Of a stretch of 7,619 bases of DNA, positions 114 through 7,619 are shown piece by piece; position 1 is the first letter of the stretch, and each line of letters opens with the position of its first letter. A model generated the notes under the pieces. It was not told the origin of the DNA, did no database searches, and saw only the letters and a list, made by a program, of their open reading frames with translations. The stretch spans positions 1-7,619 of the forward strand of contig CAYWGS010000068.1 in the NCBI GenBank assembly GCA_964457525.1, read 5' to 3'. This stretch comes from an uncultured Erysipelotrichaceae bacterium. Lineage in GTDB: Bacteria; Bacillota_I; Bacilli_A; Erysipelotrichales; Erysipelotrichaceae. The position numbers and the translations under genes were made by a program.

Positions 114-1355
114 TTAAATATCGATATTATCTTTGGCGAAGATTAACTTCAAGGCTTTAACAAAGCCCAACTTATTACCATAGCTGAGTGATCCTAGTCG
201 ATATATCTTAATCGATAGATAGGCTAATCCAATACTTGTAAGAATCATTAGAATCATCGAAATAAGTAATTCAAATAATGGTACAGATGTTAGGAAATAA
301 CGAATTGGCATCGCAAGTATTGCGACAAATGGTACAAATGAACCAATCTTTACAAAGATATTAGTTGGTGCATTAATACCAATCGAAGCGGTAATGTACG
401 CAACCATGAATAAGAGTGTGATCGGTGTAACAGACGTTCCTACATCTTCAACCTTGGATACGAGCGAACCTAAGGAAGCATATAAGAATAGATACAAGAG
501 ATAACCAATTGCGGTAAATACTAAGAAGATTAAAATAGAATCCCAAGACAATCCAGTAAATAACATCTGACTGATAAACTCTGGATAACTGGCTTGATTA
601 ATGAAATAACCAATAAAACCTGCAGCTAAGATCAATGAGAATTGAACCAATCCACCAATCGCATTGGCAAGTACTTTACCAACAATCAATGCACTTGGTT
701 GTGTAGAAGTTATTAGAATCTCCATTGTACGATTATCCTTCTCACGTGCAACAGACGTTGAGACAAAGGATCCATACATAATAACAAGCATGTATACCGC
801 AAACATTAAGATATAAGAGATAAGGAAGCTGGATTGTGCATCCTTCCCTAATACTTCTTCGTTGATGGTTATTGGTGCATTAGACAATGTATCCACAACT
901 AGAGGGTCAATACCGAGTTCATTAAATGATTTATCTCGTTGAATACGTTGCAAGATACTAATCATCATTTGATCGGTAGAACTGTACATATCTTTGTTTT
1001 GTACAATACTTCTTATGGTTTGAGTATCCTCAATGATATAACCATTGTTGATAACACCACTCTTAATATCTTCTCTTAATTGATTTTCATCTGTATAGAT
1101 ATTGAGATCATTTCCAAAATAGACCGTTAGTGAATCAATTGAGACATCCGCTGTCTTTGACATAAAGCCAAAGTTATCATATGTAATAACTGCTTCATTC
1201 TCACCTTCACTTGAATTATCAAAGAAACCCATAACGGTAGGAATACTAGTGGCTAGGATTGCCACAACACACATAATAAGCGTTGTGACTTGTACAGATT
1301 TCTTGTTTAAGATACTCATCAATTCAAATTTTAGTACTTTAAATACATTATGCAT
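114..1355 (-). CDS. ABC-2 type transporter permease (NatB-like), multi-pass membrane protein with a large extracytoplasmic loop after TM1
   Basis: ORF track 114..1364. It has an N-terminal TM (LIMCVVAILATSIPTVMGF), then a hydrophilic loop of about 130 aa, then about 5-6 further hydrophobic helices, which is the typical ABC-2/NatB architecture. It overlaps the upstream ATPase gene, suggesting translational coupling. The track start at 1364 is a GTG that sits inside the AGGTGA Shine-Dalgarno sequence. The ATG at 1355-1353 is 5 nt downstream of that SD, so it is preferred here; 1364 remains possible. Confidence 0.8.
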   Translation of the reverse strand: MHNVFKVLKFELMSILNKKSVQVTTLIMCVVAILATSIPTVMGFFDNSSEGENEAVITYDNFGFMSKTADVSIDSLTVYFGNDLNIYTDENQLREDIKSGVINNGYIIEDTQTIRSIVQNKDMYSSTDQMMISILQRIQRDKSFNELGIDPLVVDTLSNAPITINEEVLGKDAQSSFLISYILMFAVYMLVIMYGSFVSTSVAREKDNRTMEILITSTQPSALIVGKVLANAIGGLVQFSLILAAGFIGYFINQASYPEFISQMLFTGLSWDSILIFLVFTAIGYLLYLFLYASLGSLVSKVEDVGTSVTPITLLFMVAYITASIGINAPTNIFVKIGSFVPFVAILAMPIRYFLTSVPLFELLISMILMILTSIGLAYLSIKIYRLGSLSYGNKLGFVKALKLIFAKDNIDI

Positions 1356-2262
1356 TTTCTTCACCTACTTTCACTACAAAGATGTCATTTAAGCTTGGTT
1401 CATAATGGGTGAAGAGTTCGATATCAACTTTTAAACGTACTAAGTCTTCAAGTAATTCTTGTTTAGTTTTTTGGTTTAAACATTCAATAATAAGCGATTG
1501 TTTATCATGATCAATCGAAATATCCTTAACATTCTCTTTTAAGAATCTTATAAGTTCATCTTGTTCATAGGTACTTGACTTTAATCTCAAACGACTTTGA
1601 CCTAAATCAGATTTAAGTTGTTTAAGATTCCCACTTAAGATAACTTTTCCCTTATCAATCAATGTAATCTCATCACAGAATTCTTCTACATAATTCATTT
1701 GATGACTTGAGAAGATAACAAGTTTACCTTTCTCGATGAGTTCTACAATGATGTCTTTTAAGATTTGTGAGTTAACAGGATCTAACCCACTAAAAGGTTC
1801 ATCCAGAATCACAATCTCAGGATCATTTAAAAGAGCTTGTGCTATTTGAATCTTCTGTTGGTTACCTTTAGATAAGGTTTCTAACTTCTGATTCTTTGCA
1901 TAAGTAAGTTCAAATCGTTCAATCCAATACTCAGCACTTTCTTTAGCTTGTTTATGATTAGCTCCACGAAGGGTAGCGAAATAGATCAATTGGTCAAGAA
2001 TCTTTTCTTTTCCGTATAAACCTCTTTCTTCAGGTAAATAACCTACACGGTAATGATTAGGGACAAAAGGTTTACCATCTAATATAAATTCTCCACTATC
2101 TGCTTTAAATACATCCATTAGAGTACGAATGGTAGTGGTTTTCCCTGCACCATTACGTCCTAAGAATCCCATTGCCTTACCTGATGTGACTGTAAATGAT
2201 ACATCATGTAAGATTTGTTTGCCTGAGAAACTTTTATTTATGCCTTTTACGTCTAATATCAT
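1348..2262 (-). CDS. ABC transporter ATP-binding protein (NatA-like / ABC-2 subfamily ATPase)
   Basis: Walker A GRNGAGKTT, Q-loop LPEERGLY, ABC signature LSKGNQQK, Walker B IVILDEPFSGLD and H-loop SSHQM are all present in order. There is a C-terminal extension of about 80 aa, as in NatA-type ATPases. RBS GGAGG (2267-2271 on the plus strand as cctcc) lies 5 nt before the ATG. Confidence 0.92.
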   Translation of the reverse strand: MILDVKGINKSFSGKQILHDVSFTVTSGKAMGFLGRNGAGKTTTIRTLMDVFKADSGEFILDGKPFVPNHYRVGYLPEERGLYGKEKILDQLIYFATLRGANHKQAKESAEYWIERFELTYAKNQKLETLSKGNQQKIQIAQALLNDPEIVILDEPFSGLDPVNSQILKDIIVELIEKGKLVIFSSHQMNYVEEFCDEITLIDKGKVILSGNLKQLKSDLGQSRLRLKSSTYEQDELIRFLKENVKDISIDHDKQSLIIECLNQKTKQELLEDLVRLKVDIELFTHYEPSLNDIFVVKVGEENA

Positions 2263-2358: not shown

Positions 2359-4875
2359 TTATAGACCACATTTTAATTGAGCATTACAGTTGGTACATGT
2401 ATTACATCCACCAATTTCCTCAACCGTACCTTCTAAGCAGATTGGACAAATATCGCCAACCTCAACACCGATGTTACGATCTTGACGGTCTGCTCTCAAA
2501 TCTGTTTTCTTCTCTTCAACTTGTTTTTCCTTTACGTTGATACCGAAGTCATGAACGATATCCATTTGAGCCCAGTTGCTTTCATCATCATTGGATAAGG
2601 AAAGTACTTGAGAATCACGTGAACCATCGACATAAACGGTACCACCCTTAGCACCACCATCATAGAGACGTTCATAAATCTTTTGAACTTGACGAACGGA
2701 GAATCCACGAGGGGCATTAACAGTCTTAGAAATCGAGGAGTCAATCCAACGTTGAATGGCACATTGAGTATCCGCATGTTCTTCTGGCGTTAATTCCATC
2801 GCACTTACGAAGTAATCAGGAAGAGTTTGTTTAGTGTAACCTGGATTGAGTTCCAACCAATCTTCTACAATCTTAGCGTTAACTTCAATAAACTTACCTA
2901 ATCTTCCACTTCTAAAGTATGAGAAGGAGAAGTAAGGTTCAAGACCGGTCGATACACCCACCATTGTTCCAGTTGAGCCAGTAGGCGCAATCGTTAATAA
3001 GTGAGAGTTACGAATACCATATTTTAGAATATCTTGACGAATAGATTCGTCTAATTTCTTCATATAACCAGAGTTAATAAATGCTTCACGATCTTCTAAG
3101 AATGGGAATGAACCCTTTTCCTTAGCAAGTTCTACAGAAGAACGATAAGCTGTTTCTGCGATTGTTTTAAATACAGAATCAATTGTTTCAATCGACTCAG
3201 GTGAACCATAACGTTTACGAGCCCAAATGAGTAAATCATGTAGACCCATAACACCTAGACCAATACGTCTTTCACCAAGGGCTTGTTTCTTGTTTGGTTC
3301 TAAGAAGTAAGGAGTATCATCGATAACATCATCTTGCATACGTACAGTAACCGCAACAGTATTTCTTAATTTGTCATACAAGACTTCACCCGTCTTACGA
3401 TCGACGAAGTTTGCTAAGTTAATCGCAGCTAGGTTACATACGGAGTATGGTGCAAGTGGTTGTTCACCACATGGATTTGTCGCAACAACTTTCTGACCAT
3501 ATGCCTTCGCATTTGTCATTTCATTCGCGTTATCAATGAAGAAGATACCAGGTTCTGCCGAATAGGTTGCACAGAAACTAATTAAATCCCATAAATCACG
3601 TGCACGAATGGTTCTGTAAGTCTTGATTGGATAACCAAGGGCTTCCCATTCACGAACATCCCCAACTTCATGCCAATGTTCATCGTATACTGCTTTTTGT
3701 TCAGAATTATAATGTTCTAAATCAGGGAAGCGTAATTCGAACATTTTATCGTTCTTAACCGCATCCATGAAATCTTTTGTTAATGTAACAGAAATATTAG
3801 CACCAGATAAGAATTCAGGATTGGCAACACTTAAGGAACCACCATTCGCTAATTGTTCACGTGCATAATCAGACACGTGGACAGGAACATTCTTATTCTC
3901 TGCTAGAGATTCATAAATTTCTTTTTCAATACGACTTAGTGGAACGAATTTTAATTTCTTCTCAGCTTCGTATTTAATCTGCTCATCTTTTGAATTCTCA
4001 ATAAGCCATTTTAAGACTTTTGGATTTTGCATCTTGGAGATAATAAACTCAATAATATCTGGATGCCAATCCGCTAACATAATCATCTGTGCCCCACGAC
4101 GAGATCCGCCTTGTTCCACAAGATGTGTTAAGTTCGCAATATCATTTAACCAACTGACTGCACCACTTGATTTACCACCAACACCTTTAGCAGGCGCTGA
4201 TTTTGGACGTAAAGTAGAACCATTCGTTCCAACTCCACCACCACGGGACATAATCTCCATAACTTCTTTACGGTGATTGGAAATACCGCCACGTGAGTCA
4301 TGGATAAATGGCATAACGAAACAGTTGAAATACGTAACTTGTGTTTGTGACCCAGCTCCGTATAAAACACGGCCAGCTGGAATTACATTCATCTCTGCCA
4401 ATTCTTCCGCAAAGACTTTTCCATAATGATCTCTAAATTCTTCAGAAAGCTCAGTCGATGCGAGTGATTTACCCACTCGTTTTGCGATCTGTTCATAATA
4501 GATTTCTAACGGTTTATCGACTTGTTTAAATGGGCGTGTAATAATGCCTGTACTCGCTTCAACTTCATTTTCAAGAGAAGCCCTAAACTCCTCTTCAAGT
4601 TTCAATGTTACATATTCGTGTTCACGATCAACATCAAGAACGATCCCAATTCCACGGGAAGGGAACTTAGGATCTTCTTTTACGATGGTAACAACGATAT
4701 CATTAACCCCCAGTGTTTTTAAACTACGATCTTTTTGTGAATATCGATCCAACATAACAAGACGACTTACACCTGCGTGCGTCAAATTAAAATCTTTCTC
4801 AATTGGAAAGATATGATGGAAATTATGTCGGATATCCGCATTCAATTTTTCGATGGTTGATTGTGTATAACTCAT
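2359..4875 (-). CDS. nrdJ: Adenosylcobalamin-dependent (class II) ribonucleotide reductase NrdJ with a C-terminal Cys-rich zinc-finger tail
   Basis: Large RNR-fold protein with the active-site finger-loop motif TNPCGEQPL, an upstream CNL/AAINL region, and a GSTG...GLEP segment typical of class II enzymes. It has no N-terminal ATP-cone and no adjacent beta subunit or activase gene. The tail CPIC-x10-CNTC-x2-C-x5-C matches the known class II C-terminal zinc-finger/redox tail. The ORF track begins at a TTG (4914), but the ATG at 4875-4873 is preceded by AAAAAGGGGTG-TTTTT (a good SD), and the 13 extra codons overlap a promoter -10 box. The start is therefore called at 4875. Confidence 0.93.
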   Translation of the reverse strand: MSYTQSTIEKLNADIRHNFHHIFPIEKDFNLTHAGVSRLVMLDRYSQKDRSLKTLGVNDIVVTIVKEDPKFPSRGIGIVLDVDREHEYVTLKLEEEFRASLENEVEASTGIITRPFKQVDKPLEIYYEQIAKRVGKSLASTELSEEFRDHYGKVFAEELAEMNVIPAGRVLYGAGSQTQVTYFNCFVMPFIHDSRGGISNHRKEVMEIMSRGGGVGTNGSTLRPKSAPAKGVGGKSSGAVSWLNDIANLTHLVEQGGSRRGAQMIMLADWHPDIIEFIISKMQNPKVLKWLIENSKDEQIKYEAEKKLKFVPLSRIEKEIYESLAENKNVPVHVSDYAREQLANGGSLSVANPEFLSGANISVTLTKDFMDAVKNDKMFELRFPDLEHYNSEQKAVYDEHWHEVGDVREWEALGYPIKTYRTIRARDLWDLISFCATYSAEPGIFFIDNANEMTNAKAYGQKVVATNPCGEQPLAPYSVCNLAAINLANFVDRKTGEVLYDKLRNTVAVTVRMQDDVIDDTPYFLEPNKKQALGERRIGLGVMGLHDLLIWARKRYGSPESIETIDSVFKTIAETAYRSSVELAKEKGSFPFLEDREAFINSGYMKKLDESIRQDILKYGIRNSHLLTIAPTGSTGTMVGVSTGLEPYFSFSYFRSGRLGKFIEVNAKIVEDWLELNPGYTKQTLPDYFVSAMELTPEEHADTQCAIQRWIDSSISKTVNAPRGFSVRQVQKIYERLYDGGAKGGTVYVDGSRDSQVLSLSNDDESNWAQMDIVHDFGINVKEKQVEEKKTDLRADRQDRNIGVEVGDICPICLEGTVEEIGGCNTCTNCNAQLKCGL

Positions 4876-4900: not shown

Positions 4901-4909
4901 ATTCTATCA
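4901..4909 (-). promoter_or_regulatory. Candidate extended -10 promoter dedicated to nrdJ
   Basis: On the minus strand: TGATAGAAT (TG at 4909-4908, TAGAAT at 4906-4901), 26 nt upstream of the nrdJ ATG and in the only sizeable intergenic gap of the B12 cluster. No good -35 sits at 17-bp spacing; TTGCTT lies only 13 nt upstream. This is acceptable for TGn-type promoters. Confidence 0.45.
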
Positions 4910-4919
4910 TACAAATTTA

Positions 4920-4942
4920 AAGCAATTTTTTGAAAATCGCTT
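4920..4942 (-). other. AT-rich hairpin between the adenosyltransferase gene and nrdJ (possible weak terminator or processing site)
   Basis: On the minus strand: AAGCGATTTT-CAA-AAAATTGCTT (10 pairing positions including one G-U), followed by TAAATTTGT. It starts 15 nt after the tandem TGA TGA stops of the upstream gene. The stem is AU-rich and the U-tract is interrupted, so termination efficiency is doubtful. Confidence 0.3.
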
Positions 4943-4957
4943 ACATTTAAAAATTCA

Positions 4958-5422
4958 TCAAACTAATTCATTCACAAAGCAATAATCCGATAAACGGTTC
5001 ACATATTGTAGAACAGCCGTATCGACTAATTGCGTTTCATTGACTCTAACTAAACTTCTTTCAGCTCGTCTAACAACAGTTCTTACATAATGTAGGAAGG
5101 CTGCTTTCTTGTTATCGAATGGATAGATAAAGTTCGAATACTTTGATTGATTTGCCTCAATGAATGTTTCTAATCGTTTTATACTCTCTTCTAAGTCAAT
5201 TGTTTTCTTATAGCCTGCTACATAAGCAGAAATATCATACAATTCCTTAACAATCTTCTCCCAAGGCTCTTTATCAAGTTCCAATTGAGCTTGCATATGA
5301 ATGATTAAACTACTGCATTCATCCAAATTACCAAGTGCTTCAATGACGGGTTCATCTTTTGAAACACGACCATCTTTAATGCTTGTAAACCCACGATCTC
5401 CTGTTTTTGTTGTGACTGGCAT
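4958..5422 (-). CDS. pduO: PduO-type ATP:cob(I)alamin adenosyltransferase (compact, 154 aa)
   Basis: N-terminal TKTGDRGFTS...VSKD...IEALGNLDE matches the PduO-type ATP-binding motif (KTGDxGxTS ... V.A.G..DE). The C-terminal RTVVRRAER ... YVNRLSDY matches the conserved helix-bundle motifs (R..RRAER, NRLSD). The ATG lies 1 nt after the upstream stop (TAAcATG), with a GTGGGG SD embedded in the upstream gene. Confidence 0.88.
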   Translation of the reverse strand: MPVTTKTGDRGFTSIKDGRVSKDEPVIEALGNLDECSSLIIHMQAQLELDKEPWEKIVKELYDISAYVAGYKKTIDLEESIKRLETFIEANQSKYSNFIYPFDNKKAAFLHYVRTVVRRAERSLVRVNETQLVDTAVLQYVNRLSDYCFVNELV

Positions 5423-5423
5423 G

Positions 5424-5927
5424 TTAACCCCACTTTCTTAATAGATTATTAAACACTTTATAAATCGGTTTAAATAATATTAGTATAAGACTATAATTCG
5501 AGAAAGCGTGAATAATGTCAAAACTTATGCCCCGAATCCAATAAACAATACCCATATTTAAGCCATATAAGATGGCATGTTGTACTGCAAATAAGAATCC
5601 GAAGAGAAAACCAAAGAGCGCGCCCAGCAACGCCCAATGATGTGCATTATCTTTAAGAATGGGTTTTAACATACGAATGATCAAAATCCAAACAGTCCAT
5701 ATCCATAAATAGCCAAGTACCCAATCCGCAAAACCCCAGACTAATGCTTCGAGAAGTGTAAAGACAAATACAATAATGACACTTTCTTTAAAACTTAGAC
5801 TTAAACCAATGATTAAAAACCACAAAGTGACGAGTTCAACATTGGGGATAAAGGATAATGAGACTTGTAAGGCTAAAGCACCTGCCGCGAGTAATGCGAG
5901 AAGTACGATTTTACGGACATTAAGCAT
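5424..5927 (-). CDS. Small 6-TM integral membrane protein, ECF-transporter S-component-like; candidate cobalamin-specific S component (CbrT-like)
   Basis: 167 aa, almost entirely hydrophobic, with about 6 predicted helices. It is Trp/Phe/Gly-rich and contains no Cys. Size and topology fit ECF S components. Its position inside a cobalamin-riboswitch operon, between a putative B12 binder and pduO, is the argument for substrate. The family assignment comes from pattern recognition only and has not been verified by search. Confidence 0.55.
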   Translation of the reverse strand: MLNVRKIVLLALLAAGALALQVSLSFIPNVELVTLWFLIIGLSLSFKESVIIVFVFTLLEALVWGFADWVLGYLWIWTVWILIIRMLKPILKDNAHHWALLGALFGFLFGFLFAVQHAILYGLNMGIVYWIRGISFDIIHAFSNYSLILILFKPIYKVFNNLLRKWG

Positions 5928-5930
5928 ATA

Positions 5931-6374
5931 TTAGTAACTCGCTGTAAATTCAAATGTAAAGATATCTTTATCATAAAGTGGTGTTATATCCATACCAGGA
6001 CAATAACCCGCACTAACACAATCTTGATTGGTTGTTGAGTTAAATAACCACCAAGGACCAACAGCACTATCTGTGGTTACATATTCTCCAATACCGACAA
6101 TATAACGACCAAATGGATCGGATACATTGCCTGAAAAGTTATACTCTAAGTTTTCTTCCTTTAATACAGTTTCTAAGAATGTACCTAACATCTCATCATC
6201 GGTACGTTTAGTCACATCTAAAATAACAACATCTTCACCTTCTTGATCAACGGTTAAAATGATTTGTACTTCTTTAGATCCTTCAACACCTTGTCTAAAA
6301 AACTGATTATAAACAAATAAACCACCGACTAATAAAACTACTGCTACTCCAATACGTACTACATTTTTCTTCAT
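5931..6374 (-). CDS. Membrane-anchored extracytoplasmic protein with a DUF4430-like (transcobalamin/intrinsic-factor beta-domain-like) fold; putative corrinoid-binding protein
   Basis: N-terminal uncleaved signal-anchor (KKNVVRIGVAVVLLVGGLFVY) with no lipobox Cys. The domain of about 110 aa follows the DUF4430 pattern: V.I....., an L.E.L..ENLEY.FSG stretch, G.YI..IG, GPWW.F...., and a terminal D.F.FEF strand. Strong RBS AAGGAGG (6389-6383) lies 8 nt before the ATG. It is the first gene after the cobalamin riboswitch. Confidence 0.6.
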   Translation of the reverse strand: MKKNVVRIGVAVVLLVGGLFVYNQFFRQGVEGSKEVQIILTVDQEGEDVVILDVTKRTDDEMLGTFLETVLKEENLEYNFSGNVSDPFGRYIVGIGEYVTTDSAVGPWWLFNSTTNQDCVSAGYCPGMDITPLYDKDIFTFEFTASY

Positions 6375-6395
6375 GAACTAAGCCTCCTTTACAAT

Positions 6396-6466
6396 AAAAA
6401 ATACACATCTGGATGTGTACAAAAAAGACAGGCTATGTCTTTTTATCTTGTTCCCAGAAGATAAAA
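6396..6466 (-). terminator. Riboswitch expression platform: three consecutive hairpins, two of them terminator-like
   Basis: On the minus strand: hairpin A is TTTTATCTT-ctgggaac-AAGATAAAA (6466-6441). Hairpin B is AAAAGACA-tagcc-TGTCTTTT followed by TT (6443-6421); its 5' arm shares 3 nt with the 3' arm of A. Hairpin C is TACACAT-ccag-ATGTGTA followed by TTTTTTATT (6419-6396). The RBS of the first gene follows C by about 6 nt. Confidence 0.6.
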
Positions 6467-6470
6467 CTAC

Positions 6471-6622
6471 GCTTATCATTGGCAGGTCTACTGGCTGATC
6501 GTTCATCCTCAAGGATCCTTCCCGTTTTTACAGTGGATACTTCCTCTTGTCCAGATCTACAGTTGCTGGGACAGCTCCGTTTACGACGGATTCCCTATTA
6601 AGCGTTGGCACCAATCCAAGCA
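6471..6622 (-). promoter_or_regulatory. Cobalamin (AdoCbl-type) riboswitch aptamer
   Basis: The minus strand shows the conserved cobalamin-riboswitch blocks in canonical order: GGTGCC..., AATAGGGAA, the P4 hairpin TCCGT-cgtaa-ACGGA, GCTGTCCCAGCAACTGTAG, the peripheral extension CCACTG...GGGAAGG, and the B12 box AGCCAGTAGACCTGCC (6496-6481). P1 closes as ATTGG (6615-6611) with CCAAT (6482-6478). Confidence 0.9.
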
Positions 6623-6627
6623 CCTTC

Positions 6628-6656
6628 ATTATAGGGTAATTTTTTAGGATAAACAA
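6628..6656 (-). promoter_or_regulatory. Sigma-A-type promoter driving the riboswitch and B12 operon
   Basis: On the minus strand: TTGTTT (6656-6651), a 17-nt spacer, then a perfect TATAAT (6633-6628). The predicted transcription start is a few nt before the start of the aptamer. Confidence 0.55.
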
Positions 6657-6697
6657 TGTAAATCATTGGATTAATTATGTGAAATATTTTGGATATT

Positions 6698-6706
6698 TGA
6701 TAGAAT
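6698..6706 (+). promoter_or_regulatory. Candidate extended -10 promoter for ispD
   Basis: TGATAGAAT (TG 6698-6699, TAGAAT 6701-6706) lies 22 nt upstream of the ispD ATG. RBS AGAGGA is at about 6718-6723. The -35 region is weak (TGTGAA at 6678-6683). Confidence 0.4.
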
Positions 6707-6728
6707 AGAGTAAATCAAGAGGAACTAT

Positions 6729-7370
6729 ATGAACTATTCGGTACTAATCGTAGCAGGTGGAAAAGGTCAACGGATGGGCTTAGGCTATAATAAAGTCTTT
6801 TATCCATTAAAAGATGGCATGACTGTTTTAGATATGACAGTTAAATTATTTGTAGATGATGCAAGATGTAAACAACTTGTTATCGTTACGAATCCACATG
6901 ATTTACATAAGGTTACACAAACACATGAAATGGGACGTATTGTGAATGTTGGTGGAGGCGCAACTCGCCAGGATTCTGTCTACAATGGATTAATGTGTGT
7001 TACTGAAGAGATTGTGTTGGTTCATGATGCAGCACGTCCGTACTGTACAATGGATTTGATTGATGAATTATTAAAGGCGATGGAAACCGAACAAGCTGCT
7101 TTCTTGGCAGTTGACGTTAAAGATACGGTTAAAGAAGTAAAAGATGGGTATGTTGTGAAGACCATCAACCGTGAATTTCTTAGAAATGCACAAACACCAC
7201 AAGCGTTTAAGACCAGTTTATTATTAGAATGTATACATCAAGCTCAAGAAGAAAACTTTAAGGCAACGGATGATGCACAACTCATTGAACGATATAGTAA
7301 TGTTCCTATTAAGGTAGTTAAGGGTTCCTACGATAATATTAAGATTACAACACCCGAAGATATTAAGTAA
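6729..7370 (+). CDS. ispD: 2-C-methyl-D-erythritol 4-phosphate cytidylyltransferase (IspD)
   Basis: Diagnostic IspD blocks are present: VAGGKGQRMG...NKVF, GGATRQDSVYNGL, VLVHDAARP, AVDVKDTVK, QTPQAF, TDDA and NIKITTPEDI. Over these blocks it is collinear with Bacillus-type IspD as recalled from memory. A related TarI-type ribitol-5-P cytidylyltransferase cannot be fully excluded without a search. Confidence 0.85.
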   Translation: MNYSVLIVAGGKGQRMGLGYNKVFYPLKDGMTVLDMTVKLFVDDARCKQLVIVTNPHDLHKVTQTHEMGRIVNVGGGATRQDSVYNGLMCVTEEIVLVHDAARPYCTMDLIDELLKAMETEQAAFLAVDVKDTVKEVKDGYVVKTINREFLRNAQTPQAFKTSLLLECIHQAQEENFKATDDAQLIERYSNVPIKVVKGSYDNIKITTPEDIK

Positions 7371-7375
7371 TTGGT

Positions 7376-7619
7376 ATGAAAAAGCTATTTCTTATTATAA
7401 GTATTCTTATCTTATCTGCTTGTTCAGAGACAAAAGTAGTGGAATCGTGTCGATATTCCATTATTGTTTCAAGTTTTCTACCTGAAGCAGATCAAACAAT
7501 CTGTCAAACGGTTTATGATTCGATTGATTCCGCTAAGTTTAATCGAACTATTGTAGTACAAAGAGAGTTTGATATCTTTTCTATTCATATACGATTTATG
7601 TTAAATGATGGGGTTGAAG
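7376..7619 (+). CDS. Putative lipoprotein, 5' partial (continues beyond the window)
   Basis: Not in the supplied ORF track because it lacks a stop. My own translation from the ATG at 7376 is open to the window end: MKKLFLIISILILSACSETKVVESCRYS... It has a classic type II signal peptide with lipobox L-S-A-C. The start is only 5 nt after the ispD stop. Confidence 0.65.
   Translation, partial: MKKLFLIISILILSACSETKVVESCRYSIIVSSFLPEADQTICQTVYDSIDSAKFNRTIVVQREFDIFSIHIRFMLNDGVE

Follow-up and report, generated by a model that had tools for sequence, protein, structure and literature searches.

Known systems and identity of the locus

The uptake of vitamin B12 by an energy-coupling factor (ECF) transporter has been characterized for CbrT, the B12-specific S-component from Lactobacillus delbrueckii (PMC5997447; PDB 6FNP), which is encoded in a published cluster with the order nrdJ-cbrS-cbrT-pduO (PMC5997447) and which, in the form of ECF-CbrT, is responsible for ATP-dependent transport of cobalamin (Cbl) and cobinamide (Cbi) by means of a shared group II ECF module (PMC5997447). 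In the current work, a DNA stretch of 7,619 nucleotides (nt) from an uncultured Erysipelotrichaceae bacterium (contig CAYWGS010000068.1, assembly GCA_964457525.1), referred to as the window, was analyzed with a focus on a cobalamin riboswitch and the genes that follow it. This locus is best explained as a CbrS-CbrT-type unit for cobamide salvage, carried by an Erysipelotrichales-like bacterium, with an estimated probability of about 0.8. It is a divergent addition to an already known type of B12-scavenging operon, the role of CbrS being the remaining question, and one that is older than this window.

Transcobalamin-like proteins have been described in two further bacterial settings. Extracellular transcobalamin-like SLBB proteins encoded together with CbiO/CbiQ-type genes were predicted to be B12 scavengers by Burroughs et al. 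2007 (PMC1796856), and SLBB/DUF4430 proteins of this kind (see also PDB 3U7Z) have in common with the window protein a beta-grasp SLBB fold, an exported or anchored location (predicted in the case of the window protein), an association with ECF-type transporter genes and hosts that apparently depend on external B12. They differ in that the partner encoded in the window is an S-component only and not a set of CbiO/CbiQ-like genes, in that the window is without an alpha/alpha-toroid (transcobalamin alpha-domain) partner, and in that the window protein appears to be tethered by a single N-terminal helix instead of a sortase or lipoprotein anchor. In the Lactobacillus sakei ECF-like system, too, an extracellular protein of the transcobalamin-beta type shares an operon with an ECF-type importer (bioRxiv 10.1101/864751), but this system is a dedicated, haem-linked group I-like operon with its own ATPases, T component and alpha-like protein, whereas the window holds a beta-like protein and an S-component only, in an explicit B12 context.

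The principal features of the locus, which consists of homologues of the parts of the characterized system and in which the gene pair cbrS-cbrT and the riboswitch are conserved among relatives, are the following (aa, amino acids):

6464..6629, minus strand: cobalamin riboswitch aptamer (RF00174), an Rfam match
5931..6374, minus strand: cbrS-like gene, 147 aa, divergent DUF4430 / transcobalamin beta-domain-like (SLBB) protein with a predicted type II membrane anchor
5424..5927, minus strand: cbrT homologue, 167-aa ECF S-component for cobamides
4958..5422, minus strand: pduO, 154 aa, PduO-type ATP:cob(I)alamin adenosyltransferase
2359..4875, minus strand: nrdJ, adenosylcobalamin-dependent (class II) ribonucleotide reductase

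The original prediction, which had been derived from the letters of the window, placed a cobalamin riboswitch ahead of three genes separated by 3 nt (5930-5928, between the cbrS-like gene and cbrT) and 1 nt (5423, between cbrT and pduO), with no ECF genes in the window, and this layout agrees with an Rfam score of 79.6 bits and with the coordinates of the open reading frames (ORFs). Its four identity calls (riboswitch, anchored DUF4430-like protein, S-component-like protein and PduO) were correct, as judged from Rfam for the riboswitch, from profile and fold comparisons for the two proteins of the pair and from Pfam/NCBIfam for PduO. Its gene set was right for the three operon genes and omitted nrdJ, the gene of the client enzyme, which lies on the same strand 82 nt 3' of pduO (NF005991, 1394 bits).

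When compared with the L. delbrueckii cluster, the locus shares a class II ribonucleotide reductase, a DUF4430-type CbrS, CbrT and PduO, the position of cbrS directly 5' and of pduO directly 3' of cbrT, the CbrT-family motifs and the lack of ecf genes in the cluster. A contig encoding a CbrT 99% identical to 6fnp_A likewise carries a gene for a 149-aa PF14478 protein directly 5' and one for PduO 3', and L. helveticus and Lacticaseibacillus zeae display the order RTPR-DUF4430-CbrT-PduO. The arrangement, which had been regarded as unusual and poorly characterized, is not new, the published cluster having the same gene content (PMC5997447). The differences are that the gene order in the window is permuted, with nrdJ placed last and apparently under its own promoter; that the reductase of the Lactobacillus loci is of the monomeric RTPR type, whereas that of the window is of the NrdJ type (NF005991); that a cobalamin riboswitch precedes the window operon and was found in none of the three Lactobacillus loci; that the two CbrT proteins share 26% identity; and that the window CbrS belongs to a divergent Erysipelotrichales subfamily, with a GPWW motif and the pair Cys119/Cys125, which escapes Pfam DUF4430.

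The 167-aa protein is a CbrT homologue

The comparison of a profile of 39 family members with all PDB sequences resulted in a single match, being 6fnp_A, the CbrT of L. delbrueckii (E = 3.1e-28, encompassing 3-166 of the 170 profile positions). Pairwise BLASTP alignment of the 167-aa protein with 6fnp_A gave 26% identity (E = 1e-12), which falls inside the range of 25-60% identity spanned by CbrT homologues (PMC5997447), and the invariant motifs IPNV and FDxxHxxxN are common to the 167-aa family and CbrT. Approximately 100 homologue clusters were obtained for this protein, some of which are annotated as ECF S-components. The AlphaFold2 model of the protein (predicted local distance difference test, pLDDT, of 96.1) was compared with the PDB by means of Foldseek, and the top 17 entries were all ECF S-components (FolT, RibU, ThiT, BioY and PanT), with a template modelling score (TM-score) of up to 0.74 and of 0.70-0.74 for FolT. 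On the basis of these sequence comparisons, the 167-aa protein is assigned as a CbrT homologue.

In group II S-components, an AxxxA-type motif of small residues in the first transmembrane segment serves for docking on EcfT. The corresponding small residues are retained in the present family, with A, S or G at position 11 in all 38 relatives and A, G or S at position 15 in 35 of them.

The 147-aa protein is a divergent CbrS

For the 147-aa protein, 38 homologue clusters were retrieved, all of which are Erysipelotrichales-like. Comparison of the family profile with PDB sequences pointed to 3u7z (E = 0.0011), a Ruminococcus gnavus protein whose relatives match Pfam DUF4430. The AlphaFold2 model (pLDDT 87.7) consists of a helix (residues 2-26) followed by a beta-grasp domain, and the Foldseek search of this model again returned 3u7z as the best entry (E = 3.6e-6), followed by 5np4, 3kq4, 2pmv, 2bb5 and 4kki, all with a probability of 1.00, these runners-up representing the beta domains of transcobalamin (5np4), intrinsic factor and haptocorrin. 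Entry 5np4 is the isolated human transcobalamin beta domain crystallized with bound cyanocobalamin. Alignment by hhalign with a profile of 23 proteins encoded at the same position in other loci, including that of L. delbrueckii, gave a probability of 99.6% (E = 2.9e-24, 132 columns); the 23-sequence profile was required for this outcome, as the N-terminal anchor alone was aligned when the single L. delbrueckii CbrS sequence was employed. Based on profile and model comparisons, the protein is classified as a divergent CbrS (DUF4430) with a predicted membrane anchor. The family assignment that had been suggested for the two proteins thus holds as far as profile and fold tie them to DUF4430/CbrS and CbrT, while the thresholds of PF14478 and PF12822 were missed; it is because the window proteins miss these Pfam thresholds that their placement in the CbrS and CbrT families rests on profile and fold comparisons.

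The sole hydrophobic segment of the protein covers residues 4-22, after the N-terminal sequence MKKNVVR, with a mean Kyte-Doolittle value of 2.07, and the protein contains no lipobox cysteine and no obvious AxA cleavage site. The segment would represent an uncleaved signal anchor that places the remaining domain outside the cell. Just past this anchor, K34 in an EGxK motif is invariant in all 62 aligned partner proteins. The Erysipelotrichales subfamily is distinguished by an invariant GPWW motif and the invariant Cys119/Cys125 pair (residues 106-127), both being absent from the other partner proteins; a disulfide between the two cysteines or a role as ligand is conceivable. All CbrS partners keep an aromatic pair (WW, YW or YF), which is presumably located near the contact region of the transcobalamin beta domain for the nucleotide loop.

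Conservation of the cbrS-cbrT pair

A scan of species-representative genomes, performed with a narrower family alignment, revealed no fewer than 558 proteins related to the 167-aa protein, from which the best 80 loci were kept and combined with six other loci and the window into a survey set of 87 loci (individual loci are denoted by the letter L and a number). A match to the profile of the cbrS-like protein (ORF-A) was present directly 5' of cbrT, on the same strand, in 83 of the 87 loci, and inspection of the profile-negative loci for a DUF4430-looking ORF raised the occurrence of the cbrS-cbrT pair to 86 of 87, with L076 as the exception, in accordance with the co-occurrence that the original prediction had proposed to check. 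The junctions between the two genes mostly range from -4 to +5 nt, and PF14478 is matched by 49 of 62 partner proteins, these being positional counterparts. The DUF4430-CbrT pair is therefore an almost invariant, tightly coupled unit across many Bacillota that is usually under the control of a B12 riboswitch.

Within the survey, Erysipelotrichales loci are the only ones in which PduO and NrdJ come after the pair, the presence of NrdJ being judged from long ORFs and from the Pfam lists of L001, L002 and L004. In these three loci the order found in the window, with ispD oriented away from riboswitch-cbrS-cbrT-PduO-NrdJ, is syntenic.

Other genes were observed next to the pair in some of the surveyed loci. 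In a Clostridia clade, a membrane protein matching PF06541 (ABC_trans_CmpB, 'putative ABC-transporter type IV') is encoded directly 3' of cbrT (L043 10581-11507, L049 5253-6191, L051 4303-5163, L056 10492-11352, L057 10662-11738, L060 5338-6120 and L069 11796-13637), the two genes showing a stop/start overlap in L051 and L056. In L. helveticus, a PF06541 gene is also found beside the cluster, in opposite orientation (L088 9125-9898, minus strand), and the window is without it; the encoded protein may be a further uncharacterized component linked to B12 uptake. In L051, cbrS-cbrT-PF06541 is followed by a gene of approximately 770 aa (5244-7553), which, as assigned by its length, probably encodes the cobalamin-independent methionine synthase MetE; ORFs of similar length occupy the same position in L056 and L060, and the scanned set contains one MetE-type Pfam match that is not attributable to a particular sequence. 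If this assignment is true, the leader of the pair would also repress a B12-independent isozyme. In L055, a tetrahydrofolate (THF) riboswitch (10474-10577, 84.9 bits) is positioned immediately 3' of cbrT and before a 183-aa ORF, and two vitamin-uptake units are therefore placed back to back.

Riboswitch, leader and operon promoter

The match to RF00174 (Cobalamin) extends over the full model (1-189), with a score of 79.6 bits as compared to a gathering score of 31.5 (E = 6.9e-19). The sequences that flank the aptamer are as follows:

6628..6656, minus strand: putative sigma-70 promoter of the operon, read from the sequence
6393..6445, minus strand: expression platform with two tandem weak hairpins and U-runs, from sequence and RNA folding

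The operon promoter that had been proposed in the original prediction was recognized by eye as TTGTTT (6656-6651), a 17-nt spacer and TATAAT (6633-6628), just 5' of the aptamer, yet it was missed by a consensus promoter scan, since its -35 hexamer agrees with the consensus at no more than 3 of 6 positions. The region from the aptamer to the start codon contains hairpins with U-runs at about 6445-6421 and 6420-6393, and the ribosome-binding site AAAGGAGG (6390-6383) directly follows the second of these. According to the RNA fold, an 8-base-pair hairpin (6420-6401) precedes UUUUU, and a possible pairing sequesters the ribosome-binding site. These leader hairpins were not listed by a terminator scan because each contains fewer than three G-C pairs. 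The riboswitch would operate as an OFF switch.

Orthologous aptamers occupy the same position in L001, L002 and L004. By means of a home-made model, a riboswitch-like match was detected just 5' of the cbrS-like gene in approximately 60 of 81 sources, a number that is a lower bound since this model overlooked at least three true cobalamin riboswitches found by Rfam, the addition of which results in approximately 63 of 81. At the Rfam gathering threshold, no cobalamin riboswitch was detected 5' of cbrS-cbrT in L006 (9555-10522) and L066 (9582-10480), both from Clostridia/Lachnospiraceae, nor in the three Lactobacillus loci L087-L089, and riboswitch control of the pair is therefore common but not universal.

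PduO, NrdJ and expression of nrdJ

The assignment of PduO is based on PF01923 (133.3 bits versus a threshold of 24, E = 1.2e-38) and TIGR00636 (115.6 versus a cut-off of 108.45), and that of NrdJ on NF005991 (1394 bits versus a cut-off of 854), TIGR02504 (560 versus 400) and PF02867 (E = 1e-108). The start codon of nrdJ is likely the ATG at 4875 and not the upstream TTG at 4914, because the L001 orthologue, called at 838 aa, fits the ATG and because a ribosome-binding site and this ATG can be read from the sequence. In L005 (3915-6426), nrdJ was called in two pieces (117 and 736 aa) with insertion sequence transposase genes nearby, which reflects either a pseudogene or an assembly error.

The spacer between pduO and nrdJ contains one further element:

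4901..4909, minus strand: extended -10 element (TGaTAGAAT) for nrdJ, from alignment, with a presumed promoter function

When the pduO-nrdJ spacers of 12 Erysipelotrichales loci were aligned, the columns TG.TA..AT of this element (4909-4901 in the window) were invariant, and the terminator scan listed no terminator-like site between pduO and nrdJ. The gene nrdJ would thus possess its own promoter, and B12-dependent shut-off of the uptake genes would therefore not silence the B12-dependent enzyme; read-through from the operon may add to nrdJ expression. A conserved AATGTAA...TTTTCA block was also observed in the aligned spacers, approximately 25 nt 5' of the extended -10 (spacer 4901-4946, minus strand); the distance to the -10 is too large for a -35 element, and the block might serve as a binding site for a regulator.

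Proposed mechanism and rival explanations

In the proposed mechanism, a low intracellular level of cobalamin would allow the riboswitch to permit transcription and translation of cbrS-cbrT-pduO, which would be turned off at a high level. CbrS, presumably fixed to the external side of the membrane through its uncleaved N-terminal helix, would most likely capture or concentrate corrinoids and pass these to CbrT, acting as an accessory that is non-essential to the transport cycle. CbrT would bind cobalamin or cobinamide with high affinity in the membrane and would move its substrate inward by docking on a shared EcfA-EcfA'-EcfT module encoded elsewhere (group II). The imported corrinoid would then be converted by PduO to adenosylcobalamin (AdoCbl), which the adjacent NrdJ would use, while the presumed promoter of nrdJ would keep this gene on when B12 is plentiful. 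Binding of Cbl or Cbi by this CbrT, generation of AdoCbl by PduO and its consumption by NrdJ are expected by analogy with the characterized homologue. The path from capture through uptake to adenosylation, as put forward in the original prediction, is retained as the best reading of the locus, with capture as its conjectural step.

Several observations weigh against the interpretation of the locus as a cobamide salvage unit or against individual steps of it. The genes ecfA, ecfA' and ecfT are absent from the 7.6-kb window and from +/-10 kb around the locus in L001, L002 and L004, and the use of a shared EcfAA'T module in the source organism is presumed from the Lactobacillus system. The 167-aa protein is below the Pfam gathering threshold of PF12822 (ECF_trnsprt; 16.6 versus 30.7 bits), a family that is matched by several homologues at 46-67% identity and by Lactobacillus CbrTs, and the 147-aa protein has no Pfam or NCBIfam match, with none to PF14478 at E <= 0.01. 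The leader fold has a z-score of only -1.24, and its terminator hairpins are weak. The L. sakei system with transcobalamin-like proteins has been linked to haem and not to B12 (bioRxiv 10.1101/864751). As regards the capture step, CbrS is not needed for the activity of ECF-CbrT, either in Escherichia coli or in proteoliposomes (PMC5997447), and the literature search found no bacterial DUF4430 protein that had been shown to bind B12.

Group II S-components are usually encoded apart from the ECF module. The local lack of ecfAA'T, which had been presented as a puzzle, is no puzzle, given that CbrT belongs to the group II S-components and uses a shared module whose genes lie elsewhere. The original prediction had also raised the option that the S-component-like protein is a solitary, BtuM-like transporter which operates without an ECF module and is possibly aided by the anchored binder. 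Such a mode would be compatible with the mentioned lack of ecf genes in the window and within +/-10 kb of the orthologous loci, and with the fact that no match to PF02361 (CbiQ/EcfT) was found among 43 genes sampled 3' of cbrT in other loci. BtuM (PMC6072759) is a small membrane protein with an S-component fold that has been implicated in B12 uptake and has no adjacent ecf genes. It differs, however, in being found in Gram-negative bacteria without ECF modules and in having a cysteine as cobalt ligand, and a BtuM-type cobalt-ligating cysteine is impossible in the window protein because its sequence has no cysteines at all; BtuM was also neither among the PDB sequence matches (E <= 10) nor in the Foldseek top 50. 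The profile match to 6fnp_A identifies the 167-aa protein as a CbrT homologue, and solitary CbrT fails to complement or to support B12-dependent growth while ECF-CbrT succeeds (PMC5997447). Conservation of the small-residue motif for EcfT docking and the normal siting of group II S-components away from the module also argue against a solitary mode, which was rejected in view of the CbrT homology, the absence of cysteine and the behavior of solitary CbrT, and which is regarded as very improbable. An even smaller chance is given to a different tetrapyrrole, such as haem, as the substrate instead of a cobamide: deletion of lsa1836-1840 in L. sakei impaired haem uptake (bioRxiv 10.1101/864751), whereas the window operon is gated by a cobalamin riboswitch, co-encodes a cobalamin adenosyltransferase and adjoins the gene of an AdoCbl-dependent enzyme, and haem was rejected on these grounds.

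With respect to CbrS, the fold of its model and its genomic context suggest capture of corrinoids and their hand-off to CbrT as the most likely role. The stronger proposal, being that CbrS is a near-obligate extracytoplasmic corrinoid receptor which passes cobamides to CbrT, is held tentatively and with somewhat less than even odds. A membrane-anchored chaperone or stabilizer of CbrT that does not bind corrinoids, for example by holding an unstable apo outward-facing S-component or by aiding release from and re-docking on the ECF module, would leave the rest of the cobamide salvage interpretation unchanged, and constitutes a reasonable rival because apo-CbrT is unstable, being purifiable only with substrate bound, and because CbrT alone already binds Cbl at nM affinity, so that an extra binder is not obviously needed (PMC5997447 for the instability of apo-CbrT). 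That the pairing is near-obligate and translationally coupled points to CbrS as a stoichiometric physical partner, and the most conserved CbrS residues include those of the membrane-proximal EGxK motif with K34, invariant in the 62 partners. Yet the fold matches specifically the beta domain with which transcobalamin, intrinsic factor and haptocorrin contact B12, and all partners retain the aromatic pair (WW, YW or YF), and for these reasons the chaperone explanation is considered rather unlikely.

ECF transporters are by textbook definition systems that operate without a substrate-binding protein. A receptor function of CbrS would, if true, mean that a widespread ECF subclass of Bacillota uses a tethered binding protein and would therefore be an exception to this definition; CbrS could then set the affinity or the lower-ligand selectivity of B12 uptake, and the Erysipelotrichales subfamily with GPWW and the cysteine pair would be a structurally distinct version of the receptor. 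The question is already implicit in published work, as the sole functional study of ECF-CbrT omitted CbrS, and since CbrS is near-invariant, tightly coupled and riboswitch-linked and was nevertheless omitted from that study, it represents a well-defined and cheap experimental target. For the uncultured Erysipelotrichaceae, the analysis converts two 'hypothetical' proteins into a CbrS/CbrT B12 uptake system, and the locus indicates that the source organism relies on external cobamide for the synthesis of DNA precursors.

Neighbouring genes

On the other side of nrdJ, the window contains two genes of an ATP-binding cassette (ABC) system, which are its sole ABC genes:

114..2262, minus strand: DrrA-like ABC ATPase and ABC-2 permease, exporter type

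These two genes overlap by 17 nt and are located directly after nrdJ. They were considered as the missing energizer of CbrT and rejected in that role, since a DrrA-like ATPase with an ABC-2 permease is of the exporter type and unrelated to ECF energizing modules, and since no relatives but the closest (L001 and L007) retain the two genes beside nrdJ.

On the upstream side of the operon, ispD is oriented divergently. In L001, an 83%-identical relative, ispD and the riboswitch are separated by an inserted block (1298-9638) of type I-C CRISPR-Cas genes (Cas3, Cas5d, Csd1, Cas7, Cas4, Cas1 and Cas2) together with an AbiEi gene, and the window is without this block.

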